From a virus: a stretch of DNA of 64,000 bases. The stretch spans positions 1 to 64,000 of IMG/VR virus record IMGVR_UViG_3300033571_024432. The stretch is one strand, 5' to 3'. Below the pieces are notes generated by a model. It did not search any database. It saw only the letters and a program-made list of their open reading frames with translations, and was not told the DNA's origin. A program made the translations under genes and the position numbers. Positions 1,949 to 61,156 of the stretch are shown here, one piece after another (position 1 is the stretch's first letter; each line of letters starts with the position of its first letter).

Positions 1949-3226
1949 ATGATTATAACAGAAAAAAAAATTAGAATTTTAATTAAAAAATTATTAGAAA
2001 GTAATTTAACAGATCTAGAAAAAAGATACAAAGAAGATATTATACAAAAAAATTCTGATATTAAAAATAGATATAAACAAAAAAATTTAACTCCAAATAG
2101 TTGGGATTTTTTAGATTATACTGCTAATATTTTGAGAAGTTTAGATAAACCTGATCCTAAAATTTATGGTACAAATCATTTTTCGTTAGGACAAAAAATA
2201 GAGAAAGTAGACGAAATATTAAGAAACGATTTAGGTTTTAAGAAAGTAGGGTTTGGAGCATTTCGTGAAGTATATGCACGTGAAGATGTACCATTTATTG
2301 TTAAATTAGAAGCGGCTTCATTTGGAAATATAACTGGATCAAATTCAAATGAATATGATAAATATTTTAATTACGGTCCTGATAATTATCCTAGAAATGA
2401 TCTTTTTACAAAGATTTATGCATATGATCATAAAGATTCAGCATGGATTATATTTGAAAAAGTTAATGTATTTAGTCCAAATAATAAAAATTTAGTTATA
2501 TATGATATGTTCGCACCTTTTATAAATTTTTTAAGTAAAATACTAAATTTTATAATGAATGATTCTTATTATAGTAAATATTATAATCGTAGTAACTATT
2601 TAGATGCTATTATTAAAAAAGATGAATCATATGCAACAGAAATTTTTCATAATATTATAACATTTATTGAACAGGTATCAACTAATTATAAAAAAACTGG
2701 TGATTTACAAGAAGCATTTATTAATACTTTTATTAATTTGATATTGATATATGCATTTGGCAAACATATATATTCTATAGACAATCCTTTTACTAAGATG
2801 TATCATAAAGAAATAAATGAACAAAATAAATTTGTAAATATATTTAAAAAGAGATTATCAGATGCTAATATTAAGATTAAAATAACACCAGATATTTCAT
2901 ATATTTGTAACTTTTTAAAGAATGATGAAGTTAAAGATCTACATATTGGTAATGTAGGTTATAGAAATGATGCATTAACTACTAATAAAAATAAACCATG
3001 GGAGAGTTTTGTTATATTGGATTTTGGAGAATTTGGTAATTTAGATAAAATGTCTATAGAAATAGATGATAATCAATATAACCAAGAAGAATTAGATCAA
3101 CAAATGTTTAATGATTTAGAAAATTTATCAGATGAAGAGTTGAGTAGAATGGAAAACGAATCTTTTGATTTTGATGAAATGAATTATGATTATTTAGATG
3201 ATTTAGATGATGATAAAAAAGAATAA
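1949..3226 (+). CDS. Protein kinase-like enzyme, paralog 1, with N-terminal leader and acidic tail
   Basis: GFGAFREVY Gly-loop, FIVKLE, WIIFEKV hinge, DLHIGN catalytic loop, ILDFG. Start moved from 1910 to the ATG at 1949 (MIITEKKIRILIKKLLES). Confidence 0.8.
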   Translation: MIITEKKIRILIKKLLESNLTDLEKRYKEDIIQKNSDIKNRYKQKNLTPNSWDFLDYTANILRSLDKPDPKIYGTNHFSLGQKIEKVDEILRNDLGFKKVGFGAFREVYAREDVPFIVKLEAASFGNITGSNSNEYDKYFNYGPDNYPRNDLFTKIYAYDHKDSAWIIFEKVNVFSPNNKNLVIYDMFAPFINFLSKILNFIMNDSYYSKYYNRSNYLDAIIKKDESYATEIFHNIITFIEQVSTNYKKTGDLQEAFINTFINLILIYAFGKHIYSIDNPFTKMYHKEINEQNKFVNIFKKRLSDANIKIKITPDISYICNFLKNDEVKDLHIGNVGYRNDALTTNKNKPWESFVILDFGEFGNLDKMSIEIDDNQYNQEELDQQMFNDLENLSDEELSRMENESFDFDEMNYDYLDDLDDDKKE

Positions 3227-8610: not shown

Positions 8611-8621
8611 GGAGATTCTAA

Positions 8622-8927
8622 ATGAGTGAAGAAAAAAAGGCAGACGCTGTCGTCGAAGAAAAAGAAGTCAAAAAATCTGCCAAAAAATCAGAAGAAGTTA
8701 AAGCTGAGGTTAAGGTTGCAGAACCTAAAAAAGAAGTTAAAGAAGTTAAGGTAACAAATGTTAAAAAAGAATTTGTTGTAGGCGCCAAAGTTGTAGATAA
8801 GAAAAAAAGACAATTTACTATTCATAGTTTTCCGGAAGGTGAATTACACGACTTGTCTAATATTGTTTTAAAAAATGCTGATGACGTATTAAGTATACAA
8901 GTTAAAGGCAAGTTGCAATTAGTTTAA
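8622..8927 (+). CDS. Lys/Glu-rich hypothetical protein
   Basis: AAGGAG RBS; low-complexity charged N-half. Confidence 0.7.
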   Translation: MSEEKKADAVVEEKEVKKSAKKSEEVKAEVKVAEPKKEVKEVKVTNVKKEFVVGAKVVDKKKRQFTIHSFPEGELHDLSNIVLKNADDVLSIQVKGKLQLV

Positions 8928-8953
8928 GTTTATATAATTTAATAGAATAACGT

Positions 8954-9016
8954 AAAATCCTCTCGAGATATTCATAATTAGAAATAATAGAATATTGATG
9001 AGAGGATTTTTTTTTT
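8954..9016 (+). promoter_or_regulatory. Long hairpin covering the RBS of the neck gene, followed by a U-tract
   Basis: aaaatcctctc (8954-8964) pairs with gagaggatttt (9000-9010); inner atattc/gaatat; T-run up to the ATG at 9017. Confidence 0.6.
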
Positions 9017-18100: not shown

Positions 18101-18418
18101 CCATCTGCATTGGATAGAATAAATGTTAGACGTTTATTAATTTATGTTAGACGTAAAGTTAAACAAATAGCAAATTCATTCTTATTTTCGCCAAATAGAG
18201 AAGATACATTAAAAGCATTTTCAAATGCTGTTGAACCGATTATGGCAAATATTAAAGCGCAACAAGGTGTTGAAAGATATAAAGTGCAGATTGATACATC
18301 TACAACAACTCAATCAGATGTTGAGAATAATACAATTCGTGGCAAAATATATTTACAACCAACAAAGTCAACTGAGTTTATTTCTCTTGACTTTGAAGTT
18401 AGAAATTCAATTGATTAA
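15110..18418 (+). CDS. Tail sheath protein 2 (intact)
   Basis: RGPAFIP, GGFDGLNIF, PWYAPAG..RG, INPI, FGQKTL, LDRINVRRLL, RGKIYLQPTKS.EFI. Confidence 0.92.
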   Translation: MAGQGSARVSLREIDLSAPTPVNRVLTGTPAGVVGRAKRGPAFIPTIFSNIQEFQDIFGSFSDKGLDSNSNLFGPLAVNEWMSGNPGQGAFVRLLGAGNTPGFTVGTKQLGTNGNEISNSFANNTNNVNIAGKTFMLGHFAKSVTNSKYLSESGIKKIPLREVSKIVVTNTSDGINTGDTLTIKAYGDPQSEEKTFTFDGNGPASATVIQHNGTDAIATATAIKNAINSAFNTTKKVIATSSTNTVTLTQFVDDISGNINISVTKTGAAGLTITMNDLSSSDTQLFTLLRGVLMTPHNVKATVESNIAGKEEAPQNNQADSDVGYSIGNIDTTTLGFTLYLVGHLDTNINKIECSFDPSQSNYFAKVLNKDPHKIEEYGHYLYSHYDIDKNIISLPSDGDLKKEDNTNASITACGTFCVSSGEVVFENFQKRFQTAVSPWVVSQDFGIEPDGSNNSGIGDSVIKLFRFHALDDGEIGNNQIKVTVSNLVKGEFGGFGTFDVAIEKLDTNPLKNSVLVGWKRLSLDPNSLNYIARIIGDKRVYWDFDASKPGLQEEGSYSVTNKYVRVEVSDEVKNLDLPAETLPCGFAGIKQLHFTKENGDAYFVENTKLLTNYLKYMTEPPIPMIRSIGKIVQSATESKEPKVMPWGIKFAEKLNLDVGDNGFKEYIEQRFNNSIKNYSKLFNENIWNIKYIEGDSTKSQIDYANDHNFFHLEKIRITKKVDNSIDNTKWGDAIFVRNSDVSSDTAPTDASASRRFFRMKNDLSLSNSKYLSFSFFMQGGFDGLNIFDIDQHHLSDAACVKEAKTQNKTGSSIETYQKAIDVYSDKAAAEIQLLVVPGIREPSITNYGVLASESRFDTLYLMDPEQVDATGTVIVDSETIPSVNKTIQTFASRSLDTSFAASFFPDVVLNKPNGGSIKVPPTIAALGVMSRADNGGNAPWYAPAGINRGLVNASATEFSISREQLDELYDNDINPIYIPAGRDQVYVFGQKTLLKNPSALDRINVRRLLIYVRRKVKQIANSFLFSPNREDTLKAFSNAVEPIMANIKAQQGVERYKVQIDTSTTTQSDVENNTIRGKIYLQPTKSTEFISLDFEVRNSID

Positions 18419-37841: not shown

Positions 37842-38039
37842 ATGAATCAAAATCAAATATTATTAAATATATTTAATCGTTTATTGGCAGAATCAGATTT
37901 AAATGAATTTTCTGCTTTAGGTGGTGGTGCAATCACAGGTTTTAGCTCACCTGCGCCATATATTATCGATAAAAAAAATCGAGTTAGAAAAAAAAGAAGA
38001 AAAAAATTATCTGAAATTGATTTCAACAAAGAGATGTAA
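37842..38039 (+). CDS. Small protein with leader motif
   Basis: ATG 37842 after AGGTGA; RLLAESDLNEFSALGGGAITGF followed by a basic tail. Confidence 0.6.
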   Translation: MNQNQILLNIFNRLLAESDLNEFSALGGGAITGFSSPAPYIIDKKNRVRKKRRKKLSEIDFNKEM

Positions 38040-38357: not shown

Positions 38358-39488
38358 ATGACTAGTTTTAAAAATATTTTAAATAATTTTTTATTTGAAT
38401 CTACAGATAATCCCAAAAGTATTGAAATGGATTTAGATAAAAGATATGAAAATGATATCGAATTAAAAGATATTGAATTTAAATCAAGTCCTGGTTGGTA
38501 TGAATTAGATATGATTATACACGACTTAAAAAAAATAAGTAAAAAAAATTTTATTTCTCCAGACAAAATATCAATTAATGATTTTTTATTAAGTAAAGGT
38601 TATAATCTATTAGGTAGTGGAGCTTATAGAGACGTTTATTCTATGAGTAATTGTCCATGGGTAATAAAAGTTGATAAATCACTTAGGGGTAATTATAATA
38701 CTAGGGAATTAAATATTTATTTTTATAAAAAAATGGGAACAGGAACATTAGGTTTATATCCTAAAATATATGCATGGGATAATACTGTAAATAAATTACG
38801 TGGTAAATTGATAAAAGATGATCAAAGTCCTGTTAGATGGATTATATTTGAAAAAGTAGTACCAATTAAAACCGTTTCAACTTTAAAAAGTATTTTTAAA
38901 CCTTTTTATAGAGATTTAGACTTATATTTAAATGAATTAATCAAAATAGGATTAGCTGAACATTCTATTTTTGATTATATTAATGATGATCCTGAATATG
39001 AAAAAGCTGCAGGATATACAACAGAAGATATGAATACAATGAATTGGTGGAAATTAATTTATGATAATTTATTACAATTAAAGAAATTCAGAAGAGTTTC
39101 AATTCGTAATATGAAAAAACATTTTACTGATCCTTCTTTATATAATCTTTCTCAAAAAGAAAATGAATTATTTTTCTCAAAAGGCAAAGTTAATGATACA
39201 AATATTAATACAACTTTTTTAAAATTTTTATTTAAGCAGATTCATCAAAGATATATCGAATCAGATGTGTTAGAAAGAAAATTTGTTAATATATCTTTTA
39301 AAATCTGCGATGATCTAGGTATTTTTAAATCATTTTCTCCTGACGTAGCTTATATTTATAAAGACTTTGCGAATGATATGTGGGAAGATATGCATATTAA
39401 AAATCTTGGTTATAGACCTCATATTTTAGAAAAATCATTAAATTCATGGGAATCTCTAGCATTTTTGGATTTTGCTGAGGATTATTAA
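38358..39488 (+). CDS. Protein kinase-like enzyme, paralog 2
   Basis: LGSGAYRDVY, WVIKV, WIIFEKV, DMHIKN, FLDFA. Start moved to MTSFKNILNNFLFES. Confidence 0.8.
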   Translation: MTSFKNILNNFLFESTDNPKSIEMDLDKRYENDIELKDIEFKSSPGWYELDMIIHDLKKISKKNFISPDKISINDFLLSKGYNLLGSGAYRDVYSMSNCPWVIKVDKSLRGNYNTRELNIYFYKKMGTGTLGLYPKIYAWDNTVNKLRGKLIKDDQSPVRWIIFEKVVPIKTVSTLKSIFKPFYRDLDLYLNELIKIGLAEHSIFDYINDDPEYEKAAGYTTEDMNTMNWWKLIYDNLLQLKKFRRVSIRNMKKHFTDPSLYNLSQKENELFFSKGKVNDTNINTTFLKFLFKQIHQRYIESDVLERKFVNISFKICDDLGIFKSFSPDVAYIYKDFANDMWEDMHIKNLGYRPHILEKSLNSWESLAFLDFAEDY

Positions 39489-39520
39489 ATTATATATAAA
39501 TATTAAAGGTTATTATTACA

Positions 39521-40357
39521 ATGGAAATATTAAGAAAATATATCAATTTATTATTTGAATCATCTGGAAATTATAATATTGATAATGAAAAAGAATTATT
39601 TGAAACAATTAAAGCATTAAAAGAAAATAAAATGAGATATACAATCGAATATTCAAATTTTATTTCAGATGTTTTAGGATTTGATTTAATTGGACAAGGT
39701 GAAACAAGAACAGTTTATTCTAAACCTGGATTAAATTTTGTAATAAAAACAGGTGATAGAGAAAATTTAAGAGAAATTAGACACATTTTAAAATATAATT
39801 TAATTAATTTACCAAAACTATATGCATATGATGAAGATAAAGGTTATTGGATGATAGTAGAAAAAGTAGAGCTATTTAAAAAAGTAGATTCTGAATTTGA
39901 TCATACTGACTTCAATTCTAACGTATTTTTACAAATATTTCCAACTGCAAATGAACTTATAAATATAATAGAGGAGTTAATTCAAAAAGGTTTATTAGAC
40001 GAAAAAATATATGAAGGTTATTCTGAATATTATTATTTATCTTTTAATGAAAAATATTATTTAACTTACGATATTATACAAAAAACAATTGATGAATATA
40101 GCGTATCTTTATTTGAAAGCTTTCTATATTACTGTGAAGATTATTTTATTAATGTAGATTCAGAACAAATAGATAATATCAAATCAAAAATATCCAATAT
40201 TGTTACATCAGATATTGATTATTTAAAAAGTGTATTGAATAATACACAAATTATAGATATTCATATTGACAATATTGGATATAGAAAAAACGAAGAAAAC
40301 AAATATACAATTAAAGATCTAATTATCTTAGATACTGCTGGTATTCAACACACATAA
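39521..40357 (+). CDS. Protein kinase-like enzyme, paralog 3
   Basis: IGQGETRTVY, FVIKT, WMIVEKV, DIHIDN, ILDTAG. Confidence 0.78.
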   Translation: MEILRKYINLLFESSGNYNIDNEKELFETIKALKENKMRYTIEYSNFISDVLGFDLIGQGETRTVYSKPGLNFVIKTGDRENLREIRHILKYNLINLPKLYAYDEDKGYWMIVEKVELFKKVDSEFDHTDFNSNVFLQIFPTANELINIIEELIQKGLLDEKIYEGYSEYYYLSFNEKYYLTYDIIQKTIDEYSVSLFESFLYYCEDYFINVDSEQIDNIKSKISNIVTSDIDYLKSVLNNTQIIDIHIDNIGYRKNEENKYTIKDLIILDTAGIQHT

Positions 40358-40383
40358 AAAAATTAAAAAAACAACCCACCACC

Positions 40384-40402
40384 ATCTAATACGTGGACAA
40401 AA
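40384..40402 (+). repeat. 19-bp intergenic element, copy 2 (ATCTAATACGTGGACAAAA)
   Basis: Identical to 1649..1667. Confidence 0.85.
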
Positions 40403-40452
40403 TAATATATAAATATAAAATTATAATAATTAATAACAAAAAAGGTTTATAA

Positions 40453-41640
40453 ATGCTTTATTTAAGAAAATATATTAAATTGTTATTTGAATCATCAGAT
40501 CTATCTGCACTTGAAAATAAATATTCATCTGAAATTATTAAAAAAAAATATCCTCAAAGCCATTATGAATTACATCATATAATAGATGAATTAAAAGACG
40601 TTTCAAAGAAATACGTAGGAAAAGAATGTTTAAACAAGTTAAAAGAAAAGATATTAGAAAATAACTATGAATTATTAGGTGAAGGTAATTATAGATCAGT
40701 TTATTCTAAACCTGAAGTGGATTTTATAATAAAATTATCAAGAAAAACTATAGAAGAAATTGACGATGATGTAGAAAAATATATAGAAGGTCAAAAGCAA
40801 TATAATATCGCTTTTCCAGACAGTCCTAAAAAATATAATGAAACACATTTTGATATAATTAGGAAAGCAAAAAAAGATACAGCTAGAGGAAATAGCATTG
40901 AATATAATAAAAGTTTGGAATATGGTAATAAATTTTTTACAAAGCAATATGCCGTTGATGAAAAAAATAATTATTGGGTTATTTCAGAAAAAGTAAATAA
41001 ACTGTATGGCAAAGATTTCGGAAAGTTTTTTCCATATTTGTATAACTTATATATAAAATTGCTTGTTAGTTATATAAAAATATTTTTTAGAATAGAAGAT
41101 ATAACAGAAGAAAAAGTAATGACTCATATTAATAGTGATTCATTTTTACAATCTTTTTTTCTTGCTGGAAAAGTAGAGTTTATGGATTCTATTTTTTCAG
41201 GATTAGAAAATAAAAGAATTTTTAATTTTAAAGATATTTTAAAACAATTTATATTTATTACTAACCCTTTTTGTGAATCTTCTGGCGTTGAATTAGTAAC
41301 AGCAATTCTTAAAGAAATCTCCGATATTGAACATTTAAAAGAATTAAATAAAGAAATATATAATATTCCTATAAGAAATGGTAATTATTTGTCAGGTATT
41401 GTTGAAGATATTATGTTAGAAATAGGAAATTTATCAAGTAATTTAAGTTATTTATTAAATGATATGTATACTGATTTAAATATGTCTCTTAATGATTTCC
41501 CAGATTTAACTTACTTGATGAATATTGTAATTAATGCAAATTTTAAAGATTTCCATGTAGATAATATTGGATATAGGAATAATGATATGAATAAAGAAAA
41601 GCCATGGAAAAATTTAGTCTTTTTAGATTATGGCAATTAA
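40453..41640 (+). CDS. Protein kinase-like enzyme, paralog 4
   Basis: LGEGNYRSVY, FIIKL, WVISEKV, DFHVDN, FLDYG. Confidence 0.8.
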   Translation: MLYLRKYIKLLFESSDLSALENKYSSEIIKKKYPQSHYELHHIIDELKDVSKKYVGKECLNKLKEKILENNYELLGEGNYRSVYSKPEVDFIIKLSRKTIEEIDDDVEKYIEGQKQYNIAFPDSPKKYNETHFDIIRKAKKDTARGNSIEYNKSLEYGNKFFTKQYAVDEKNNYWVISEKVNKLYGKDFGKFFPYLYNLYIKLLVSYIKIFFRIEDITEEKVMTHINSDSFLQSFFLAGKVEFMDSIFSGLENKRIFNFKDILKQFIFITNPFCESSGVELVTAILKEISDIEHLKELNKEIYNIPIRNGNYLSGIVEDIMLEIGNLSSNLSYLLNDMYTDLNMSLNDFPDLTYLMNIVINANFKDFHVDNIGYRNNDMNKEKPWKNLVFLDYGN

Positions 41641-42697: not shown

Positions 42698-45007
42698 ATG
42701 GCCGCACCTAAAAAGAAAATAAGTCAGGATTTACAACCTGATCTAATCACTGATGACTTTACTAGTGATCTCATTAAATCTCTAAATAAAGAACGTGGTA
42801 TGCGTATTGCATACAATCTCTCATCAGATGAATCACCTACACATGTCAAACGTTGGATTAGCACAGGCTCAATTCAACTTGACTATATTATTTCAAATCG
42901 TAAAAATGGCGGTCTTCCAGAAGGTCGTATTATCGAAATCTTCGGTCCACCATCGATTGGTAAATCACATATAGCCTCTCAGATTGCTAAATCAACTCAA
43001 AGAGCAGGTGGTATTGTTGTTTATATTGATACAGAAAATGCTGTTAGTATTGAAAATCTTAAAACTTTAGGTGTCGATATCTCAAAGCGCTTTGTCTATG
43101 TCGATACACACTGCACAGAAGAAGTCTTTAGTATCGCTGAAAGTACTATCATGAAATCTAAAGCTATGCAAAAAGATGTTCCTGTAACAATTATCTGGGA
43201 CTCAGTTGCAGCAACATCACCTAAGGCTGAATTGGCAGGTGAATACGATAAAGATAGTATCGGTCTTCAAGCTCGAGCCATTTCAAAAGGTATGAGAAAA
43301 ATTACAGGTGTTATCGCTAATCAGAATATTCTCTTTGTCTGTCTTAATCAAGTACGAACAAAGATGGGTGTAATGTATGGCGATCCTTCAACAACTCCTG
43401 GAGGTGAAAGCTACGCCCCCTATTCTAGAGTATAAATAGAAAATTAATTCCGTGAATTGCTGGAAACCCTTTAGAGTCTTTATTACTACAACATGATAAG
43501 TAATTGTGAGTGTGAAAGTTTGAAAAAATAAAGAATTAGGCAATCAGCAGCCAAGCATCCTGGTGACAGGTTGAAGGTTCAGAGACTAGTGTTAGTAACC
43601 TTTATCGATTTGTCATTATTTACCACAGAAAAACGAAGAAAGATAAAGAAGAAAAGACCTATGAGCGCGGAACAAAAATATAAATGCGAAATTTGTGGAA
43701 AATATTTCAAGTCAATTACAAATTCACATCTAAAGAAACATCAAATTACAACATATGAATACAAAGATATGTATCCTAATGTTGTTTTTGGAAATTTTGA
43801 AAGATTTAATAATTGGAGAGTGTCAGAAGAGAATAAACAAAATTGCATAAAAATGTCGCAAAAAGTTTATTCAAATGATGATATTAATTCAAGAAGAGTA
43901 CAATCAATCAAAAAAGTTACAAAAAGTCAAGAATATAAAAGTAGTCAATCCCAAAAAATGAAATTAGTTGCAAAAACAGAGAAAATGATTTCTTTTTACA
44001 ATGAAGCAAAAGAAAGAATTACACCTTGGATGAAAAAATCTAATTTCGAAAGATGGGAAATATTATACGGTTTAGAAGAAGCAAATAGACGTTTAGAGGA
44101 TTGGACAAAAAGGAATGTTTTACCTTCTAATTCAAGAAATACTAAACCTGAAATATTATTCATGAATATTTTAGACAATCTATGCTTATCATTTACTACG
44201 CAGAAAAGAGTTGGTAAATATATTTGCGACTTCTATCTTCCTGACTATAATTTGATTGTTGAAATCGATGGTAATTATTGGCATGCAAATCCCGAGATAT
44301 ATAAATCGACAGATATTATTGGACCAAAAAGATTTTCAGCCCAGAAAATATGGGAAAAAGACAATAATAAAAGTGCGTATATTCTTAATAAAAATTTTAA
44401 TTTGTTAAGATATTGGGAAAATGATATTAAAAATATTTCGTATGAAAAAGTTTTTGAAGATATAGTCCAAACATCTAAGAAATTAGATGAAGAAAAGGTC
44501 GCAATTCCTTTCCACTCATCTGTAAGAATTAAATTAGGCGCAGGTAGCCCAATTGAAGGTGCAGATAAAGAACCTATTGGTATTAATGTATCAGCGAAAA
44601 TTATTAAAAATAAAGTATCAGCCCCATTTAGAAAAGCTGAATTTAGAATTATTTTTGGTAAAGGCATTTTTGAACATGAAGAAATTTTTGATACATTAAG
44701 AAAATTAGGTGAATTTGAATATAATGGTAAAAAAGTGTGTATTGATGGCAATGGTGCTTGGAAATCATTAGTAGTTACTACAATGACAGATGTTATTGAG
44801 ATAGAAAAAAAGTTTTATAAGTCTGATTTCGATAAAATCATGAATGATCCTTTATATAAGGAATACATTGATGTTGCAATTGAAAAAGCATATACAAAAT
44901 CGTCCAATGATATTTTAGTAGAAGATATTGATCAAGATTCTTATATTGAAAATGAAGCTGCAGCGATGGCTTTAGTAGAAAATGATTATTTAGCAGGTGA
45001 TGATTGA
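42698..45007 (+). CDS. recA: RecA/UvsX recombinase, spliced: join(42698..43405,44498..45007), 405 aa
   Basis: GPPSIGKS Walker A, IIWDSVAA Walker B, LNQVR. Splicing restores DPSTTPGG|VAIPFHSSVRIKL. Confidence 0.92.
43406..44497 (+). mobile_element. Group I self-splicing intron in recA
   Basis: 5' exon ends in U (GGT). P gaattgctggaaa 43454, Q aatcagcagcc 43542, R gttcagagacta 43577, S aagatatagtcc 44457; terminal G at 44497. gcccccu can pair with the exon end as P1. Confidence 0.92.
43661..45007 (+). CDS. Intron-encoded homing endonuclease (C2H2 Zn finger plus Vsr/DUF559-like domain); ORF has no stop before recA exon 2
   Basis: CEICGK....TNSHLKKH; TKPE...CDFY...IVEIDGNYWH...KD......LLRYWE. 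Confidence 0.8.
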   Translation: MSAEQKYKCEICGKYFKSITNSHLKKHQITTYEYKDMYPNVVFGNFERFNNWRVSEENKQNCIKMSQKVYSNDDINSRRVQSIKKVTKSQEYKSSQSQKMKLVAKTEKMISFYNEAKERITPWMKKSNFERWEILYGLEEANRRLEDWTKRNVLPSNSRNTKPEILFMNILDNLCLSFTTQKRVGKYICDFYLPDYNLIVEIDGNYWHANPEIYKSTDIIGPKRFSAQKIWEKDNNKSAYILNKNFNLLRYWENDIKNISYEKVFEDIVQTSKKLDEEKVAIPFHSSVRIKLGAGSPIEGADKEPIGINVSAKIIKNKVSAPFRKAEFRIIFGKGIFEHEEIFDTLRKLGEFEYNGKKVCIDGNGAWKSLVVTTMTDVIEIEKKFYKSDFDKIMNDPLYKEYIDVAIEKAYTKSSNDILVEDIDQDSYIENEAAAMALVENDYLAGDD

Positions 45008-47972: not shown

Positions 47973-49115
47973 ATGAAATATAATGGTATAGAAATTGATG
48001 TTAATTATGATAATAATTTAAGTGAACAAGCATATTCATTACTTAAAGATTATTATATGTTAGAAGGTGAAACAACACCTCAAATGAGTTATGCTAGGGC
48101 TGCATTAGCTTTTTGTTATAATGATTTTGAATTAGCACAAAGAATTTATGAATATGCAGCTAAAAACTGGTTTATGTTTAGCTCTCCAATTTTGTCAAAC
48201 GCTAAAACGCAAGACGGGAAAAACTCAAAAGGTTTACCTATCAGTTGTTTTTTAAGTTATGTTGATGATTCATTAGAAGGTTTAATGGATCACTCTAATG
48301 AATTAAGATGGATGTCTGTTAAAGGCGGTGGCGTTGGAGGTCATTGGTCAGCAGTTAGAGCAAATAGCGAAATTTCTCCAGGACCTATACCTTTTTTAAA
48401 GACTGTTGATGCAGATATGACAGCTTATAGACAAGGAAAAACTCGTAAAGGCAGTTATGCTGCATATATTGATATTAGTCACCCTGATATTGTTGAATTT
48501 TTAAATATTAGAGTACCTACAGGCGGTGATAGTCATCGTAAATGTTTTAATCTTAATAATGCAATTAATATTACAGATGATTTTATGAATGCAGTATTGG
48601 AAAACCAAGATTGGAAATTAATTGATCCTAAAACAAAAAGCGTTAGAGATACTATTAATGCACGTGAATTATGGCAACGTATTTTAGAAGTCAGATTTAG
48701 AACAGGTGAACCATATCTTAATTTCATTGATGAAGCGAATAGAAAATTACCACAATATCAACAAGAAAAAGATTTAAAGATACATGGCAGCAATTTGTGT
48801 ATAACTGGAGATTCTTTATTAACAGTTATGATTGATAATCAAATCAAAGAAATGAATATTAAAGACGTTATTACAGAGTTTGAAGAAAATAAAGATATTT
48901 ATGTATTATCATATAATATTGATAAGAAAATAAATGAGTTTCAAAAAGTGTTAGAAGGTCAATTAATGTCAGAAAGTGCTGAATTGTTGGAAATCGAGGA
49001 TGATGAAACAGGATTTAAATTAATTTGTACACCTGAGCATTTGATTTTTACAAAAAACAGAGGCTACGTGATGGCTAAAGACCTTACAGAACAAGATGAA
49101 CTGTTAATAAAATAA
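47973..49115 (+). CDS. nrdA: Class Ia RNR alpha subunit, N-fragment plus split intein N-half
   Basis: SSPILSN, PISCF, GGGVG, GSYAAY, TGEPY, HGSNL|CITGD; no ATP-cone evident. Confidence 0.93.
   Translation: MKYNGIEIDVNYDNNLSEQAYSLLKDYYMLEGETTPQMSYARAALAFCYNDFELAQRIYEYAAKNWFMFSSPILSNAKTQDGKNSKGLPISCFLSYVDDSLEGLMDHSNELRWMSVKGGGVGGHWSAVRANSEISPGPIPFLKTVDADMTAYRQGKTRKGSYAAYIDISHPDIVEFLNIRVPTGGDSHRKCFNLNNAINITDDFMNAVLENQDWKLIDPKTKSVRDTINARELWQRILEVRFRTGEPYLNFIDEANRKLPQYQQEKDLKIHGSNLCITGDSLLTVMIDNQIKEMNIKDVITEFEENKDIYVLSYNIDKKINEFQKVLEGQLMSESAELLEIEDDETGFKLICTPEHLIFTKNRGYVMAKDLTEQDELLIK
48798..49112 (+). mobile_element. Split intein, N-half (105 aa)
   Basis: CITGDS block A and CTPEHLIFTKNRGYVMAKDL block B, followed by a stop. 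Confidence 0.92.
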
Positions 49116-49160
49116 TGAAATTCACTCAGCCATAATTCTATATAAAAAAAAGGAAAACAA

Positions 49161-49922
49161 ATGAGTGAAAAATTTATTATTTATATTCATACTTTTAAAT
49201 CAACAAATAAATCATATATTGGTTATACATCATTAACTATTGAAAAAAGATTGCATAAACATATATTAAATTGTAAAGCAGGTTTTGAATCAAAGTTTTA
49301 TAGGGCTATAAAAAAATATGGAGTATCTGATATTGAAAGTCATATTTTACATGAATGTAAAAGTAAAGAAGAAGCAAAAGAAAAAGAAATCGAAATGATA
49401 AAAAATTTTGACACATTTGAAAATGGTCTAAATGAAACAATAGGCGGTGATGGAGGATGGATTGTTCCTGATGCTAAACTTGAAAGATGGAAGAAAACAA
49501 AAAGTGAAAGAATGTTAGGAGAGAGAAATCCGACATATTCAGGTGTAAAGGATATTGAAATTTTAGAAAAAGCATATGATTATTTTCTTAAGACAAATCA
49601 TATGCCGATTCGAAAATGGCAAATGTTTAGTAGCAAAGAATATAATTTTCCTAAGTCATATTCAAAATTTAGATTTAGAGAATATGGCTCAGGTTTAAAA
49701 GGTTTTAAAAATGCGATGAAAGAAATATATTCTCTAAATGATAATGATTTCAAATATGTCATAACCCAAGAACATATATCAAAGTTATCCAATTCAAAAA
49801 ATGGAAAGCATTGGTATATTAATATACATACGCAACAAAGAAGACAGTGTTTTGAGAAAGACATTGATAGAAAAGATTGGTTAACAGCCAATGAGATTAA
49901 AGGATTAAAAAATGGCAATTAA
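49161..49922 (+). CDS. Free-standing GIY-YIG homing endonuclease between the intein halves
   Basis: IIYIHTFKSTNKSYIGYT...RLHKH...AIKKYG...E...I..FDT...GLNETIGG. Confidence 0.88.
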   Translation: MSEKFIIYIHTFKSTNKSYIGYTSLTIEKRLHKHILNCKAGFESKFYRAIKKYGVSDIESHILHECKSKEEAKEKEIEMIKNFDTFENGLNETIGGDGGWIVPDAKLERWKKTKSERMLGERNPTYSGVKDIEILEKAYDYFLKTNHMPIRKWQMFSSKEYNFPKSYSKFRFREYGSGLKGFKNAMKEIYSLNDNDFKYVITQEHISKLSNSKNGKHWYINIHTQQRRQCFEKDIDRKDWLTANEIKGLKNGN

Positions 49923-50013
49923 AATAAAGAAAATTGAAAATACACAAGCTGTATACGATATTAAAGTAGAAAATAATCAAAATTTCTTTGCAAATAATAT
50001 GTTAATTCATAAT
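49912..50013 (+). mobile_element. Split intein, C-half (34 aa)
   Basis: MAIKIKK...VYDIKVENNQNFFANNMLIHN|C. Confidence 0.92.
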
Positions 50014-50973
50014 TGCAACGAGATTCATCTCGCAACTAACAAAGATCGAAGTGCAGTTTGTTGTTTATCATCATTAAACTTAGAAAAATTTGAAGAATGG
50101 AAAAATACAACAATCGTCGAAGATTGCATCACTTTTTTAGACAACGTACTTCAATATTTCATTGATAATGCTACAGATATAGGATTAAAAAAGGCTCGTT
50201 TTAGCGCAATTCAAGAAAGATCTTTAGGATTAGGTGCAATGGGTTTTCATGCTTATTTACAATCAAAAAATATACCATGGGAAAGTGCATTAGCTAAATC
50301 TCAAAATATGAAAATTTTCACATTAATTAAAGAAAGAGCATTTTCACAGACAAAAAAGCTTGCAAAAGAAAGAGGAGAGGCCCCTGATGCTATTGGTTAT
50401 GGCGTCAGAAATGCTCATCTTTTAGCTATAGCCCCTAATGCAAATAGTTCTATTATCGCAGGTACTTCTCCGTCAATAGAACCATATAAAAGTAATGCAT
50501 ATACACATCGTACTCGAGCAGGAGCTCATTTAGTTAAAAATCGTTATTTAGAAAATATACTAAATGAAAAATCTTTAAAAATTGAAGAAGAAAATAGACA
50601 AATTTGGTTAAATGAATTATGGACATCAATTATTACAAATGATGGATCAGTTCAGCATTTAGATTGTTTAAATGAATGGGAAAAAAATGTATTTAAAACA
50701 GCTTTTGAAATTGATCAAAGATGGTTAATTGATCATGCCGCTGATAGACAAGAATTTGTTTGTCAAGGACAAAGCGTAAATCTATTTTTTCCAGCAGGTA
50801 CAGATAAAGCAATTGTAAATGCTGTGCATTTAAGAGCATGGAAAAATAAATTAAAAGGTTTATATTATCTTCGTACAAATTCAGGTGCAAAAGCAGAAAA
50901 TGTCAGTGAAAAAGTCAGAAGTGATAAATTAAAAGACTTTAAAGATACTGATTGTTTAAGTTGTCAAGGATAA
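49912..50973 (+). CDS. nrdA: Split intein C-half plus class Ia RNR alpha subunit C-fragment
   Basis: HN|CNEI, CCLSSLN, RSLGLG.MG, AIAPNANSSII, CQGQSVN, KGLYYLR, terminal CLSCQG. Confidence 0.93.
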   Translation: MAIKIKKIENTQAVYDIKVENNQNFFANNMLIHNCNEIHLATNKDRSAVCCLSSLNLEKFEEWKNTTIVEDCITFLDNVLQYFIDNATDIGLKKARFSAIQERSLGLGAMGFHAYLQSKNIPWESALAKSQNMKIFTLIKERAFSQTKKLAKERGEAPDAIGYGVRNAHLLAIAPNANSSIIAGTSPSIEPYKSNAYTHRTRAGAHLVKNRYLENILNEKSLKIEEENRQIWLNELWTSIITNDGSVQHLDCLNEWEKNVFKTAFEIDQRWLIDHAADRQEFVCQGQSVNLFFPAGTDKAIVNAVHLRAWKNKLKGLYYLRTNSGAKAENVSEKVRSDKLKDFKDTDCLSCQG

Positions 50974-52777: not shown

Positions 52778-54418
52778 ATGATATTAAATGAAAAAAAATT
52801 AAATGAAATAATAAAAAAAGTTTTAAAGGAATCTAGATTTATTTTTGGTGATTATAAAGACGATCAAGGAAATTCTACAGATTTAAAAGCTGTTAATATA
52901 TCAAAAAAGTTGGGGAAACAATCAAACCCGCATGAAAGATGGACAAATCAGGATGAAAGAGAACAAATAATTGATGAAGTATATTCATTGGCAGGTCCAG
53001 ATGTATTTATTTCTTTTGTTGATCCATTTGAAAAAGGTGCAGATGGTTATTTAGCATCGCCTGCATTTAGTTTAAACCCGAATGCTACTTTTAATACACC
53101 TCATGGTATATATGCTTATCCTTTTGATAAAAACGATGCACAAAGATTTATAGAGACAGGTTCACCTACACCTTCTCCATTTGCTACAGGACGTAAATAT
53201 TTTCATTTAATGAGAATTGATTTAGCAAATCCAAATATAATTGTTTTTAATAAAGATGGAACATGTAATAGAAATATTAGTAATCAAGAATACGAGGCAA
53301 ATATCGACGAAATGATTAGAATGCATTATTTGTTTTTTAAAGATGAAATAATGAATTGTGTAATGAAATATGATCGTGAATATTGGCCACGTGGTGTTAA
53401 TAAGCAAACAGATAAAAATAAAAATGTTAAAATTGTTATTGATGAATATTATTTTAAAGATTCTAAAAAAGAAGAATTACAGAAATTTTTGAATAGTTTA
53501 AGATCTTCAACTAGAAGCATGTATATTGATAATAATTATTATAGACTTTATAAAGCAGCATACCATTTATCAAAAAATAAATATATGGGTGATTCATCAT
53601 CAGATGTAAATATTGATGCCAACTTAAATGTTAAATTTTCAAAAACAAGAGAGGTAAATTCTGAATTTTTTACATTGTTATTGAATAGGATTGGTATAAA
53701 GTGTGTTATCGATAAAGGAACAGGGGCAATACACCCAAATGAGCCAAGTCAAGTACATATTTTAACATTAGCAGATGATTCTTCTTATTATGAATATCTA
53801 GGTACATATCATAATAATTTAACAGCATCAGATGAATTGTTTTATTATTTCTTAAAAAATAATTTATCTGTTAATAAAAAATTTATTGCAATTGATAAAG
53901 ATAAAAAAATATTTGTTTGTGATATTACAAATGCTGAGGCAAAATTGGTAACATCAGTAGAACAATATATGGTTGAACACCCTGAGGATTTTGGACATCA
54001 TAAAATTAATAATGATGTTGATGTTGATGTTGATGTTGAAAATGAATATTCTAATGATCCTGATGTTATTCCATTAATAGATGAATGGGATGATGAAGAT
54101 TATGAAGATTATATTGAAACTTTCGGAATAAAGCCTACAAGAATGACAAAAAATCTAGAAAAAAAGTTCAAAAAAGAAAATTATCAAGAATTATATACAT
54201 TTTTTACTACAGAATTAGGATATCCACCAATTTTTATACCAGTCGATTGGAAAGAAATATCAAGCAAATTAAAAGTACCTTTATTGGTTTCTTTTGAGAA
54301 AAAAGTTAAAATATCTGCAATTTCAGGGTTAACATTTTTATTGAAAAAAATAGCTAAAAAATATTTTGGATATGAAAAAGTTTCGAACTCTTCTGATTCA
54401 AATGATGATGATTTTTAA
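52778..54418 (+). CDS. Leader-bearing protein with putative ART-like domain, paralog A
   Basis: FISF...SLNPNATFNTPHGIYAYP...GTGAIHPNEPSQ. Confidence 0.6.
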   Translation: MILNEKKLNEIIKKVLKESRFIFGDYKDDQGNSTDLKAVNISKKLGKQSNPHERWTNQDEREQIIDEVYSLAGPDVFISFVDPFEKGADGYLASPAFSLNPNATFNTPHGIYAYPFDKNDAQRFIETGSPTPSPFATGRKYFHLMRIDLANPNIIVFNKDGTCNRNISNQEYEANIDEMIRMHYLFFKDEIMNCVMKYDREYWPRGVNKQTDKNKNVKIVIDEYYFKDSKKEELQKFLNSLRSSTRSMYIDNNYYRLYKAAYHLSKNKYMGDSSSDVNIDANLNVKFSKTREVNSEFFTLLLNRIGIKCVIDKGTGAIHPNEPSQVHILTLADDSSYYEYLGTYHNNLTASDELFYYFLKNNLSVNKKFIAIDKDKKIFVCDITNAEAKLVTSVEQYMVEHPEDFGHHKINNDVDVDVDVENEYSNDPDVIPLIDEWDDEDYEDYIETFGIKPTRMTKNLEKKFKKENYQELYTFFTTELGYPPIFIPVDWKEISSKLKVPLLVSFEKKVKISAISGLTFLLKKIAKKYFGYEKVSNSSDSNDDDF

Positions 54419-54461
54419 TTTTATTTAATATATATATATTAAAAAAAGTATATATTAAATT

Positions 54462-56294
54462 ATGATATTAACTAGAAACAAATTAAATAAAATAATAAAA
54501 AATAATTTAAAAGAAACCAGATTTATTTTCGGTGATTATGAAGAAGAAGATGTTGATTCTAATGATAAAAATTTAAAAAAATCAACAGGATTATCAGCAA
54601 AAAATATGTCTAAAAATATAGGTTCAAAATTAAATTTCATGAAATTTAATTCTAATGAAGAATCTAAAGAATTTATAAAAAATATCGCAGGACCTGATAC
54701 TTTTATTTCTTTTATAGACCCTTATGAAAAAGAAGACGCTGATTCTGATGATTCTGAATCTGCGATGAAGGTTCCGTCATTTAGTTTAAATCCAAATGCT
54801 ACTTTTAATACACCTCATGGTATATATGCTTATCCTTTTGATACTAAACACTGTGAAAAATTTATTATAACAGGACAACCTACAAATGCTGAATTTGCTA
54901 TTGCAAGACCTTATTTTCATTTAATTAGAATTGATTTAAATCACCCAAATGTAATTAGTTTTAATGCAGATGGTAGTAGTAATAAAAGTATAAATAGAAA
55001 TAAATATTTAAAAGAACTTAATGAACTTATAAGAGTTCATTGTAAATATTATAATAAAGATGAAAATGAAAAAGAAAATATTTCAGAATCAATTAATGAA
55101 AGGCTTAAAGAATCAATACATTTTCAATTAAGAGATCTAGGGATGAGTAATGATGAAAAATTTGACAAATTAAAAGAAAAATTTTTAAATAATCATTATT
55201 ATAAATTATATAAAGCAGCTTTTTATTTATGCTTTGAAAATGTTTTAAGAAAGTCATATGGATCTGAAGAAAAAAATTCAGAACTATATGCATTATTATT
55301 AAATGTAATTGGTATGAAATGTATTGTTGATAATAATACAGGTACAATACACGAAAATGAACCAACGCAAATGCACATTTTGACATTTGGCGAAAATGAT
55401 TCTTTTTATGAATACGTAGGTACATTTAAAAATAATATAAAAGCAAATGAAAAAGAATTATCAGATTATATTTCAAATTTAAAGTATACAGATATTGTAA
55501 AATTTTATTCAAAATTAGACGGTAGCAAATGTTTTGATAAAAATCTAATTGATACTATTTTTAATTTATATAAAAATGATGATGATATAATGTCATTGTT
55601 TGTAAAATTAATTTATGAAAAATTAATGACATTTTGTTTCGATACAGAAGAAAGAATAGATATTATTAATAAAATAATATCACAAGACTTTGTTAATTGG
55701 TTAGAAACTTCTGTAGTAAGTGCTAGTGGTATGAAAAATATAAAAAAATGGTTAGGTATAAACGAAGAAAATATATCAAACAAGTATACTTCTTTAAAAG
55801 ACTGGATATCATTATTTAAAGAAAAAAGTAAAAGTCAAATTACATTTTTATTACACGAACATGTATTAAACAAATTTGATGGTCTAGAAATATTAATAGC
55901 AGCAAGAAATATAGATTTAAAAACATTTTGTTTATTATATGAAATAATAATGTATGAACATGAATTTAATAAAAAAATAACCGAACAAGATAATGCAACA
56001 AAAACTTTCCTGCTTAATACATTAAGTAATATTGATATAGATATATTTAAAAATATAATTAAAGCAACAGATATCGATTTATTTAAAGAACAAAATACTA
56101 TAGAAATGTTTATAAATAAAAACATTAATGATCTAAAAAGAATTGATATATTTTTTAATTATATTTCAAATTCTTTACCTCATATGGAAGATAAAATTAA
56201 GCAATATATAAAAAATAAAGTTAAAAATAAAAATGAATCATTAAAAAAATTAAAAGCGTTAATTAGATATGAATTAAAAAATATATTACATTAA
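54462..56294 (+). CDS. Leader-bearing protein with putative ART-like domain, paralog B
   Basis: FISF...SLNPNATFNTPHGIYAYP...NTGTIHENEPTQ; a near-identical 60-bp DNA block is shared with paralog A. Confidence 0.6.
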   Translation: MILTRNKLNKIIKNNLKETRFIFGDYEEEDVDSNDKNLKKSTGLSAKNMSKNIGSKLNFMKFNSNEESKEFIKNIAGPDTFISFIDPYEKEDADSDDSESAMKVPSFSLNPNATFNTPHGIYAYPFDTKHCEKFIITGQPTNAEFAIARPYFHLIRIDLNHPNVISFNADGSSNKSINRNKYLKELNELIRVHCKYYNKDENEKENISESINERLKESIHFQLRDLGMSNDEKFDKLKEKFLNNHYYKLYKAAFYLCFENVLRKSYGSEEKNSELYALLLNVIGMKCIVDNNTGTIHENEPTQMHILTFGENDSFYEYVGTFKNNIKANEKELSDYISNLKYTDIVKFYSKLDGSKCFDKNLIDTIFNLYKNDDDIMSLFVKLIYEKLMTFCFDTEERIDIINKIISQDFVNWLETSVVSASGMKNIKKWLGINEENISNKYTSLKDWISLFKEKSKSQITFLLHEHVLNKFDGLEILIAARNIDLKTFCLLYEIIMYEHEFNKKITEQDNATKTFLLNTLSNIDIDIFKNIIKATDIDLFKEQNTIEMFINKNINDLKRIDIFFNYISNSLPHMEDKIKQYIKNKVKNKNESLKKLKALIRYELKNILH

Positions 56295-59916: not shown

Positions 59917-60561
59917 ATGAATATGAATTGTATTTATAATGTTTCTCCTAATTTAAAAGTTGTTGAATTGAGACAAGATCCGTTGATGATAAATATTACA
60001 ACGATTGATGAAGAAACAGCAGCTGAATTTAGAGATGCCATGTCCATGGCACATAATTCAGGACAAGAAGTTATTCCTATTATTATTGATAGTTATGGTG
60101 GTAATGTTCATAGTTTGTTATCTATGGTTGATTGTATTGTTGAATCTAAGCGAAAAGTTGCTACGATTGTAATAGGTAAAGCATTAGGTTGTGCTTCTAT
60201 TTTGGCTGCTATGGGAAACAAAGGTTTACGTTTTGTATCTCCTAATGCATCATTAATGTTAAATAATGTAAGTAAAGAAAGTTGGGGTAAAACTGGTGAT
60301 TTTAAACCTGATAGTAGAGAAGTTGAAAGATTATATAAACTTGTATGTAAAATGCTTGACAAAAATTGTGATAAAGAAGAAGGATATTTTGAATCACTTA
60401 TCAAAGATAAAGGTGGTTGTGATTGGTATTTTGAAGCTTCTGATGCTGTTGATTATAACTTGATTGATCATATTAAACTGCCATGGATGGAAGTAAATAT
60501 ACAACCTGAATATCAATTTGATAATATTAAATATAAGGAGAATGTCAATGAAATTGATTAG
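59917..60561 (+). CDS. ClpP-like protein lacking the catalytic Ser and His
   Basis: IIIDSYGG; GKALGCAS where ClpP has Ser; MLNN where ClpP has MxH. Confidence 0.8.
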   Translation: MNMNCIYNVSPNLKVVELRQDPLMINITTIDEETAAEFRDAMSMAHNSGQEVIPIIIDSYGGNVHSLLSMVDCIVESKRKVATIVIGKALGCASILAAMGNKGLRFVSPNASLMLNNVSKESWGKTGDFKPDSREVERLYKLVCKMLDKNCDKEEGYFESLIKDKGGCDWYFEASDAVDYNLIDHIKLPWMEVNIQPEYQFDNIKYKENVNEID

Positions 60562-61156
60562 AAATATTTCTAAAAAGATTAAAGAATTAGAGATGAGATT
60601 GGCGCCTGTTATAATTTGTGTTAATGATTTTACAGAAGAGAATGCAAATCAATTTATTAAAGAAATTGGATTAGCACATAACACTGGACAGCCTATTATT
60701 CCTGTTGTAATTGATAGTTATGGCGGTGATGTATATTCATTAGGTCGTATGATTGATGCTATTAAAAATGCAACTTTACCTGTTGCGACTATAGTTGAAG
60801 GAAAAGCAATGAGTTGTGGAGCTATTCTGATGACATATGGAACCAAAGGATATCGTTATTGTAATCAAGATGCAACAGTTATGATGCATGATATTAGTGC
60901 TTCATCTTATGGTAAAATTGAAGAAATACGTAGTTCATTACAAGAAGTTGATAGATTACAAAGTAAAATTTTAGCAGAAGTTGATAGAAATTGTTGTCAG
61001 GAAAAAGGTTATTTTAATAAAAATATTCATGATAAAGGTCGAGCAGATTGGTTTATTAATCCTGATGAAGCTCTTGCGATAGGTATGTGTGATAAATTAG
61101 GAAATCCTAATTTAAATATTGATTTTAAAGTTGACATTTCGTTTAAATTTGATTGA
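60548..61156 (+). CDS. clpP: ClpP-family serine protease (triad intact)
   Basis: VIDSYGG, GKAMSCGA (Ser), MMHD (His), ADWF..PDEAL..G..D. Start ATG 60548 follows AAGGAG. Confidence 0.85.
   Translation: MKLIRNISKKIKELEMRLAPVIICVNDFTEENANQFIKEIGLAHNTGQPIIPVVIDSYGGDVYSLGRMIDAIKNATLPVATIVEGKAMSCGAILMTYGTKGYRYCNQDATVMMHDISASSYGKIEEIRSSLQEVDRLQSKILAEVDRNCCQEKGYFNKNIHDKGRADWFINPDEALAIGMCDKLGNPNLNIDFKVDISFKFD

Follow-up and report, generated by a model that had tools for sequence, protein, structure and literature searches.

Here we describe four paralogous genes, K1 to K4, located in a 64,000-nucleotide stretch of viral DNA (hereafter the window), which comprises the first 64 kb of the 116.7-kb IMG/VR virus record IMGVR_UViG_3300033571_024432. 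K1, K2 and K3 lie in tandem, and K4 stands apart from them (Table 1). Our analysis indicates that the encoded proteins very probably form a distant branch of the T7 kinase (T7K, gp0.7) superfamily rather than belonging to the Hanks-type kinases, and that they are probably active T7K-like kinases acting on proteins. A preliminary description of the window had read them as four eukaryotic-like kinases, each carrying an N-terminal leader and a large helical insert.

Four divergent paralogs with a common catalytic core

The four paralogous kinase-like open reading frames (ORFs) of the preliminary description, with the motifs listed there, were borne out, all of them on the plus strand. In a MAFFT alignment of K1–K4 (alignment A1), mutual identity is 25–33%, and an invariant series of motifs runs along the proteins: G-x-G-x-x-R-x-V-Y, (V/I)-I-K, N..E and Y-A-x-D...W-x-I-x-E-K-V, followed in the C-terminal part by D-x-H-x-x-N-x-G-Y-R and L-D-(F/T/Y). 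The hinge motif, given earlier as (Y/L)AxD, is present but has no L variant, reading Y-A-x-D in 4/4 copies. BLASTP comparisons between paralogs (E = 3e-10 for the K2/K4 pair; 3e-9 and 9e-7 for the K1/K3 pair) were significant, and the paralogy of K1–K4 is far beyond chance. Applied to the whole 116.7-kb record, the A1 profile recovered exactly four copies, K1–K4. The starts of K1 and K4 were placed at 38358 and 1949, and not at those of the longer ORFs from 38283 and 1910, because the orthologues P0003 and P0004 start at the leader Met.

A minimal protein-kinase-like fold

To characterize the architecture of the family, we used AlphaFold2 models of K2, built on a 49-sequence family alignment (A2), and of K3, built on alignment A4. 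The K2 model reached a predicted local distance difference test score (pLDDT) of 86.6 and a predicted template modelling score (pTM) of 0.82, and the K3 model a pLDDT of 82.9. Foldseek comparison of K2 with the PDB returned kinase-fold proteins only (E 2.4e-5 to 3e-3), including PsiK, APH(2''), methylthioribose kinase, Rio1/2, PRPK, RSK2 and TBK1. When K2 was compared with 48,161 chains by VIA-align, the top 50 matches were all protein-kinase-like folds (Z 5.5–7.4 over 130–148 residues, root-mean-square deviation 3.5–5.8 Å); for K3, the majority of the 50 best matches were such folds (Z at most 6.5). Structure prediction thus bears out a kinase-like fold in both models, with the motifs on the expected elements. 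At the level of these models, the bilobal protein-kinase-like (PKL) fold of K1–K4, with five strands and alpha-C in the N-lobe and the catalytic loop in a helical C-lobe, is secure, because the matches are unanimous, the two models agree and each catalytic residue sits on the right element.

Conservation across the family follows the same elements. Among the 49 members of A2, R63, K76, W110, N251 and D271 (K2 numbering) are invariant in 49/49, and G60, E85, D246 and G253 are at least 90% conserved. The full catalytic set is kept, comprising the Gly-rich loop, the beta-3 Lys, the alpha-C Glu, the catalytic Asp, the Asn five residues on and the metal-binding Asp.

Beyond this core the proteins are strongly reduced. 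K1, K2 and K3 end 5, 7 and 3 residues past the DFG-position Asp, and K4 has the same core plus a 67-residue tail; an activation segment, a P+1 loop and helices alpha-F to alpha-I are absent from all four. Between hinge and catalytic loop lie 176, 129, 184 and 157 residues in K1–K4, a region that is all-helical in both models; in these predicted structures the whole C-lobe consists of this 129–184-residue stretch of helices ahead of the catalytic loop. The preliminary description had called it a large, divergent helical insert. It is indeed helical, of that length and divergent, but the models present it as an enlargement of the normal pre-catalytic helices, which span ~58 residues in T7K, and not as a pure insertion. 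The K3 model shows an additional helical insert of ~50 residues in the N-lobe, before alpha-C.

The label "eukaryotic-like" could not be kept, given the lack of a Pkinase hidden Markov model (HMM) match, of an HRD motif and of an activation segment or APE motif, and the end of the chain after the DFG-position Asp. Membership in the Hanks-type Ser/Thr/Tyr kinases (PF00069) was considered and rejected: we found no Pkinase match at E = 1, no H-R-D, no A-P-E and no alpha-F to alpha-I.

Relationship to the T7 kinase superfamily

Direct sequence searches placed K1–K4 in no described family. A Pfam scan gave nothing significant, the best match being YrbL-PhoP_reg (E = 0.021) at the C-terminus of K2; the Pfam copy used does not contain PF27024, and T7K itself gives no match in the same scan. 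A PHROG scan of the four proteins was likewise without a significant match, and at E = 0.1 it matched neither phrog_15752 nor phrog_4301. The A1 and A2 profiles retrieved only spurious helical matches from PDB sequences (Mx2, TAF6 and designed proteins), and neither K2 nor a shorter relative, P0046, had a tblastn match to any isolate phage in a search of 50,697 phage records. A word-index protein search yielded one relative only. An exhaustive A1 HMM search of 1.84 billion cluster representatives recovered 148 proteins at E ≤1e-3, and 22 of these passed E ≤1e-30. Because K1–K4 have no direct match, the link to T7K rests on profile–profile, fold and intermediate-sequence evidence.

The profile–profile comparison used a 21-sequence T7K alignment (A3). 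In hhalign, A2 matched A3 with a probability of 63% (E = 7e-5), and a sub-alignment of the 28 shorter members matched it with a probability of 83% (E = 1e-5). With relaxed settings, the alignment was colinear from the Gly-rich loop to D-x-H-x-G-N, the catalytic loop of K2 aligning colinearly with T7K D195-M-H-S-G-N200.

Fold comparison pointed in the same direction. In BFVD, the matches to K2 were led by uncharacterised phage proteins and by annotated T7-like "protein kinase" entries from Enterobacter phage IME278, Pectobacterium phage Q19 and Pantoea phage SK1, the best E-value (4.8e-7) surpassing that of any PDB match. Other matches included jumbo-phage proteins of CBB and RaK2 and A0A7L7SMK1, an entry named in the T7K paper (PMC13645617).

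Intermediate sequences provided a third connection. The unannotated phrog_4301 was matched by 30/49 members, among them the K1 orthologue P0003 (E = 8e-5), and phrog_15752, annotated as T7 gp0.7, by 7/49, including P0011 and P0013 (best E = 1.6e-7). The T7K HMM scored 31–87 bits on six proteins that the A1 profile had retrieved (38–87 on five), whereas reversed-sequence controls gave ≤2.6 bits. These bridging proteins (P0044, P0055, P0142, P0109, P0148 and P0131) are matched by the T7K and A1 HMMs over the same segments. In an ESM Atlas neighbour cluster, PF27024 (Phage_T7_kinase) occurs in 17% of members.

Taken together, K1–K4 themselves match no Pfam kinase model directly, while their relatives tie them to the T7K family, and the hhalign, BFVD, PHROG and bridging-protein evidence carries the comparison with T7 gp0.7, drawn in the preliminary description, beyond analogy to homology. 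We therefore assign K1–K4, with good confidence, to a distant branch of the T7K superfamily.

Two proteins show fused arrangements of such domains. P0044, a metagenome protein of 1,021 amino acids, contains four or five tandem T7K-like domains and represents a poly-kinase relative. In record L006, positions 7917-10058 encode a 713-amino-acid protein made of two fused copies, the first of which has D-I-A-A-N-N in place of D-x-H-x-x-N.

Evolution of the paralogs

A maximum-likelihood tree of 30 full-length family members was reconstructed. Every one of K1–K4 groups with an external orthologue of its own (Shimodaira–Hasegawa-like approximate likelihood-ratio test support 99–100), and K1–K4 are not mutual nearest relatives. 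The orthologues are P0003 for K1 (74% identity), P0006 for K2 (84%), P0002 for K3 (47%) and P0004 for K4 (58%), with P0005 also listed for K4. The longest contig measures 68,226 nt in all three of the P0002, P0003 and P0006 clusters, with every one of them further represented on a contig of 7,954 nt; this agreement suggests that the K1–K2–K3 trio is kept as a unit in a related phage. K3 was further found on a 219-kb contig, and two- or three-copy tandem arrays, with the leader on every copy, occur on the freshwater metagenome contigs L008, L009, L013 and L014.

The expansion in this genome, as the preliminary description had framed it, is consequently not recent but an old, conserved set: a separate orthologue exists for each paralog, and the trio orthologues occur together on contigs of matching length. 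A recent lineage-specific expansion was rejected on the same pairing in the tree.

Sequence divergence is unevenly distributed along the proteins. Between paralogs, the helical region shows 20–28% identity versus 35–53% for the N-lobe and catalytic segments, in agreement with the earlier view of the inserts as the divergent part. Compared with the respective orthologue, the helical region is 76–79% identical in K1 and K2 and 33–43% in K3 and K4, and in K3 and K4 it evolves faster than the core. This pattern fits old duplications after which the helical lobe would have specialised.

A modular N-terminal leader

The leader was sought with a position-specific scoring matrix (PSSM) trained solely on external relatives and scanned over the 116.7-kb record with a cut-off of 8 bits. 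Scores at or above the cut-off were obtained for 11/123 N-termini versus 7/1,419 internal windows, K2, K3 and K4 scoring 28.3, 31.4 and 17.2 bits. The matches included non-kinase ORFs at 37842, 71486, 75532, 81185, 82230, 97372, 102090 and 104970. A looser regular expression matched 24/123 N-termini versus 28/1,050 internal windows. Both statistics agree with the earlier claim that the leader is present on each of the four copies. It is also common to ~8–20 unrelated ORFs of the phage. The leader is thus a real, N-terminus-specific and modular element. M1 and the Glu of the leader are kept in ≥90% of the 49 family members, and neighbouring genes on related contigs carry similar leaders. In the K2 model it forms a separate low-pLDDT helix, followed by pLDDT <50 at residues 13–15. 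The upstream motifs TATAAATA and TATATAA occur at mildly raised frequency ahead of leader genes (p = 0.05 and 0.002, respectively), which is weak evidence at 25% GC.

Several of the leader-bearing ORFs have features of their own. ORF 37842-38039 encodes a Gly-rich stretch and a K/R-rich tail, resembling the small basic internal-protein cargo of T4, and has no PHROG match. ORF 200-1201 (plus strand, 333 amino acids), which has the same leader and no Pfam or PHROG match, contains G-S-R-D-G-K-E-Y-F-I-K-F (Gly-loop and Lys-like), W-D-Q-P-K-N (D-x-x-x-x-N) and G-I-D-P-G-G; its ESM Atlas leads are HipA_2, PI3_PI4_kinase and LepB_N at 0.91, and it is possibly a further, fifth kinase bearing the leader, which would then come from an unrelated superfamily. 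At 52778-56294 (plus strand), two large tandem paralogs of 546 and 610 amino acids, both without a Pfam match, carry the near-identical leaders M-I-L-N-E-K-K-L... and M-I-L-T-R-N-K-L....

The closest parallel to such an element is found in phage T4. Capsid-targeting sequences of T4 are N-terminal propeptides of 10–20 residues, and the head proteases of T4, phiKZ, 201phi2-1 and SPN3US cut after Glu in x-x-E motifs (PMC5694885). Like the gp21-cleaved T4 tags of IPI–III and Alt, the leader is a short N-terminal peptide on unrelated proteins that ends in hydrophobic-x-Glu, and the T4 cargo likewise includes host-modifying enzymes. On these points the likeness is good. By this analogy the leader could be a packaging or cleavage signal, a tentative reading that we place slightly below even. 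It differs from the T4 tag in sequence, and no gp21-like protease, gp23 or gp20 is found on the available 44%-complete fragment.

Head genes and gene position also bear on packaging. PF03420, PF07068 and PF07230 gave no match in the 116.7-kb record (44% complete) or in the L006 record (12% complete); since both records lack any head module and are incomplete, the missing head protease, capsid and portal genes are uninformative rather than negative. In addition, the kinase genes sit amid replication genes (a family A polymerase fragment, gp32 and RecA/UvsX), a place where packaged late proteins are not expected. In the literature searched, we found no virion-packaged phage kinases apart from predictions for polyvalent proteins, and no report of a kinase as T4-type capsid-targeting cargo.

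The position of K1–K3, between polymerase-related genes and gp32/RecA, is readily accommodated if the T7K-like kinases are made in the infected cell and are not packaged. The leader would then be something other than a capsid-targeting propeptide, for example a docking helix for a common partner (a chaperonin, another compartment's scaffold or the membrane) or an N-terminal degradation or timing tag for phage ClpP-like proteases. T7K is itself an early, non-packaged protein, and the record encodes two ClpP-like proteins (59917-61156) and a GroEL-like protein, while no T4-type head protease was found on it. However, the hydrophobic-x-Glu end of the leader, together with the small residue that follows, corresponds to the cut site of T4-type and giant-phage head proteases; the leader precedes a low-confidence linker and is attached to many unrelated proteins, as in T4 internal proteins; and absent head genes mean little in a 44%-complete fragment. 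We regard the non-packaged explanation as possible, although on the doubtful side.

Catalytic activity and substrates

Phosphotransfer activity of K1–K4 is likely on the evidence above. Their substrates, judged by homology with T7K, would on balance be proteins.

A number of observations weigh against the view of K1–K4 as T7K-like protein kinases. The four proteins themselves lack a match to any Pfam kinase model, T7K PHROG or PDB sequence, and the structural Z scores (≤7.4) lie in a range that the tool itself rates as middling. T7K has D-P-V where K1 has D-F-A, K2 D-T-A, K3 D-Y-G and K4 D-F-G, and its C-terminal shutoff/DNA-binding domain is absent from K1–K4, with an acidic tail instead in K4. 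Among T7K homologues, D-P-V is conserved in Autographiviridae, with the Val less conserved in those from jumbo phages and prophages, and the jumbo-phage and bacterial homologues also lack the C-terminal domain (PMC13645617). The best Foldseek matches in the PDB are small-molecule kinases, namely PsiK, APH(2'')-IVa and methylthioribose kinase (E = 2e-5 to 1e-3), and the D-x-H-x-G-N loop resembles the APH/choline-kinase type. A D-L-H-x-G-N loop is found in many APH-family enzymes.

The last of these observations, on the Foldseek matches and the catalytic loop, would suit an alternative in which K1–K4 are small-molecule kinases of the APH, choline-kinase or methylthioribose-kinase type, the helical region serving as a ligand pocket for a metabolite, an antibiotic-like compound, a nucleotide-derived signal or a cell-envelope sugar. 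A helical C-lobe is typical of small-molecule kinases, APH(2'') is the top VIA-align match for K2 (Z 7.4), and ADCK3/UbiB-like proteins appear in the K3 list. This similarity to APH(2''), however, is at the level of the shared fold only, and neither the APH (PF01636) nor the choline-kinase Pfam models give a match even at E = 1. The substrate-binding helices of APH-type enzymes come after the DFG-position Asp, where K1–K3 have nothing. The nearest relatives in both sequence and structure are T7-like protein kinases, and T7K is a proven protein kinase (PMC13645617). We consider the small-molecule alternative quite unlikely.

A further alternative is that K1–K4 are pseudokinases or have a structural or scaffolding role, keeping the kinase fold but working through binding, such as sequestration of a host protein or nucleotide. 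We regard it as highly improbable. The four proteins do lack an activation segment and any loop to position a substrate, pseudoenzymes with a kinase fold are common (IRAK3 and ULK4 are among the structural matches) and the fused L006 relative has an altered catalytic motif in its first domain. However, the Lys, Glu, catalytic Asp, Asn and metal-binding Asp are kept in 4/4 copies and in nearly all 49 relatives, which would be unexpected without catalysis, and T7K is highly active despite the same truncated architecture.

Proposed mechanism and implications

In the mechanism we propose for K1–K4 as T7K-like protein kinases, ATP would be held between the Gly-rich loop with its invariant Arg, the K76–E85 pair and the hinge, and D246 and N251, together with Mg bound at D271, would catalyse transfer to a hydroxyl group. 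The active site would be constitutively open, because there is no activation loop. Any selectivity would be provided by the paralog-specific helical lobe and the acidic tail of K4, the helical region being likely a substrate- or partner-recognition module. T7K is a hyperpromiscuous kinase of dual specificity; it phosphorylates the majority of host and phage proteins and works against defence systems, its activity forming a short early burst (PMC13645617). By homology, K1–K4 may phosphorylate host and/or phage proteins, leading to cell takeover or blunted defences.

The leader would act in this scheme as a T4-type capsid-targeting propeptide, cut after Glu by a head protease, with the kinases delivered along with the DNA; if it is indeed a packaging signal, they would act at the moment of DNA entry. 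A more far-reaching model, which we regard as speculative and unlikely, holds that a lineage of uncultured large aquatic phages packages three to five diversified T7K-like kinases without an activation loop via the cleavable leader and injects them with the DNA, so that host proteins, defence systems among them, would be phosphorylated before phage gene expression, the helical lobe directing each paralog to its own targets. Within that model, ORF 200-1201 may add an unrelated HipA/PI-kinase-like member to the battery.

These findings extend the T7K superfamily to a deep branch known from metagenomes only, comprising at least 148 clusters at 50% identity. New features of this branch are the conserved arrays of kinase copies, the diversified helical lobe and the modular N-terminal tag. 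If the tag does serve packaging, K1–K4 would be the first phage kinases to enter the cell ready-made along with the genome, a parallel among phages to the virion kinases that poxviruses and herpesviruses carry. In addition, the family offers a natural series for studying substrate choice by a kinase without an activation segment.

Genomic context

The 116.7-kb record is linear and, by the CheckV estimate, 44% complete; the window is very AT-rich, with a GC content of ~25%. Its source is an uncultured large contractile-tailed phage (myovirus) remote from any isolate, in which the sheath, tube, baseplate-hub and adaptor genes gave only weak PHROG or tblastn matches. The phage encodes gp32-like and RecA/UvsX-like proteins, a family A polymerase fragment, two ClpP-like proteins and ThyX. 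A sigma-70 promoter scan performed at chance (53 sites versus 48 expected) and was uninformative. The coordinates of the kinases and their elements are given in Table 1.

Table 1. Kinase copies K1–K4, their elements and the adjacent leader-bearing ORF. Positions are nucleotides of the window unless given as residues.
Feature	Position	Strand	Details
K1	38358..39488	+	376 amino acids; leader M1-E14, ends F-L-F-E-S; G-loop from residue 86; hinge end 167; helical region 168-343; catalytic D344-x-H-x-x-N349; DFG-position D371 (L-D-F-A)
K2	39521..40357	+	278 amino acids, shortest copy; leader M1-E13; G58-x-G60-x-x-R63-x-V-Y; K76 (beta-3); E85 (alpha-C); hinge W110-V116; helical region 117-245; D246-x-H248-x-x-N251; D271 (L-D-T-A)
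K3	40453..41640	+	395 amino acids; leader M1-E13; G-loop from 76; N-lobe helical insert ~97-145; hinge end 181; helical region 182-365; D366-x-H-x-x-N371; D392 (L-D-Y-G)
K4	1949..3226	+	425 amino acids, ~35 kb from trio; leader M1-E17 (K-K-L-L-E-S); G-loop from 101; helical region 173-329; D330-x-H-x-x-N335; D358 (L-D-F-G); then acidic tail
K4 acidic tail	3023-3223	+	67 residues; 25 D/E vs 4 K/R
Leader, K1	38358-38399	+	All four leaders: amphipathic, 13-17 residues, ending (L/F)-x-E then S
Leader, K2	39521..39559	+	Residues 1-13, M-E-I-L-R-K-Y-I-N-L-L-F-E, then S-S
Leader, K3	40453-40491	+	
Leader, K4	1949-1999	+	
Catalytic loop to DFG-position Asp, K1	39387-39470	+	This segment in all four copies: columns invariant in A1, A2 and A4
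Catalytic loop to DFG-position Asp, K2	40256..40333	+	
Catalytic loop to DFG-position Asp, K3	41548-41628	+	
Catalytic loop to DFG-position Asp, K4	2936-3022	+	
K2 model, beta-1 / beta-2	residues 55-59 / 63-67		Flank G58-x-G60
K2 model, beta-3	residues 73-78		Carries K76
K2 model, alpha-C	residues 80-92		Carries E85
K2 model, beta-4 / beta-5	residues 100-103 / 110-114		End in W-x-I-x-E-K-V hinge
K2 model, seven helices	residues 133-239		No conserved residue
K2 model, catalytic loop	residues 246-251		D246-x-H-x-x-N251
K2 model, short strands	residues 252-254; 267-269		D271 after second strand, none of the listed residues in first; chain end 278
Non-kinase ORF	37842..38039	+	65 amino acids; just upstream of trio; leader L-L-N-I-F-N-R-L-L-A-E-S, 12.5 bits

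Other parts of the window hold interrupted or duplicated genes. At 42698-45007 (plus strand), a RecA/UvsX-like gene is split, its N-terminal part lying at 42698-43435 and its C-terminal part in frame behind an endonuclease-like ORF at 43571-45007 (plus strand). Bases 43438-43590 show 72–79% identity to stretches that look like introns in Staphylococcus, Lactococcus and Serratia phages, and Rfam detected no intron in the split gene (no family at gathering score). The tail sheath is likewise in pieces, with ORF 12265-14277 (plus strand) corresponding to the N-terminal part of the sheath profile and 14483-15016 to the C-terminal part, and a second, complete sheath-like gene of 1,102 amino acids follows at 15110-18418 (plus strand); a search of viral contigs for sheath relatives found none. 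By eye, a ribonucleotide-reductase-like gene at 47973-50973 (plus strand) seems to be interrupted by a GIY-YIG-type ORF (49161-49922), and the ORF after this interruption has an intein-like H-N-C junction.

Directly upstream of K4, two small ORFs at 1272-1925 (plus strand) show motifs, also recognised by eye, of T5orf172-like type in one and GIY-YIG-like type in the other; they are possibly mobile endonuclease genes beside this isolated kinase gene. The two ClpP-like genes are on the plus strand, overlapping and in tandem (PF00574, E ~1e-23 each), and adjoin ThyX; they do not lie in a head module.

Comparison with known systems

Among solved structures, RIO, Bud32/PRPK, HopBF1, OspG and APH-family kinases are the best matches to K1–K4 (Z 5–7.4), having the N-lobe and catalytic core in common, and several of them likewise lack a normal activation loop. 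These atypical and APH kinases retain C-lobe elements after the DFG-position Asp, whereas the window family has none. Pfam and PDB sequence searches detected no sequence-level relation of K1–K4 to them.

Kinase-PolyVal (PF18762) domains have lost the C-terminal kinase subdomain while keeping the active-site residues, and are predicted to enter with the invading DNA and act on host proteins (Iyer, Burroughs, Aravind 2017, PMC5512222). K1–K4 resemble them in this truncation with retained active-site residues. The Kinase-PolyVal domains, however, are parts of giant multidomain proteins, in contrast to the stand-alone proteins with a short leader found here, and their diagnostic features (a Glu before strand 2, a Gln in the last N-lobe strand and an insert separating the catalytic His from the Asp) were not seen in the window family. 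The Kinase-PolyVal model matched 1/49 members, at a sub-threshold E = 0.0046, and none of K1–K4.

Closer relatives are found among phages. The phrog_4301 proteins and those of Pectobacterium phage CBB and Klebsiella phage RaK2 have ~170–230 residues and a short helical region, unlike K1–K4, yet it is this PHROG that 30/49 members match, and the CBB and RaK2 models are among the best BFVD fold matches.

T7K homologues have been reported almost only in phages, mainly T7-like ones, with few in jumbo phages and prophages, and the Gly-rich-loop substitution G76F renders T7K catalytically dead (PMC13645617). K1–K4 differ from T7K in the invariant Arg of their Gly-rich loop, in the length of the helical region (129–184 versus ~58 residues), in the presence of four paralogs per genome instead of one, in the N-terminal leader and in their source, a large myovirus as opposed to an Autographivirus. 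The T7K consensus reads G-N-G-H-F...Y, V-I-K-V, F-D-M-H-S-G-N-I and I-T-D-P-V. Both are phage-restricted minimal kinases with helices between hinge and catalytic loop, without an activation segment or alpha-F to alpha-I, and both follow the same motif order of G-x-G...Y, V-I-K, hinge, D-(L/M)-H-x-G-N-(I/L) and metal-binding Asp.

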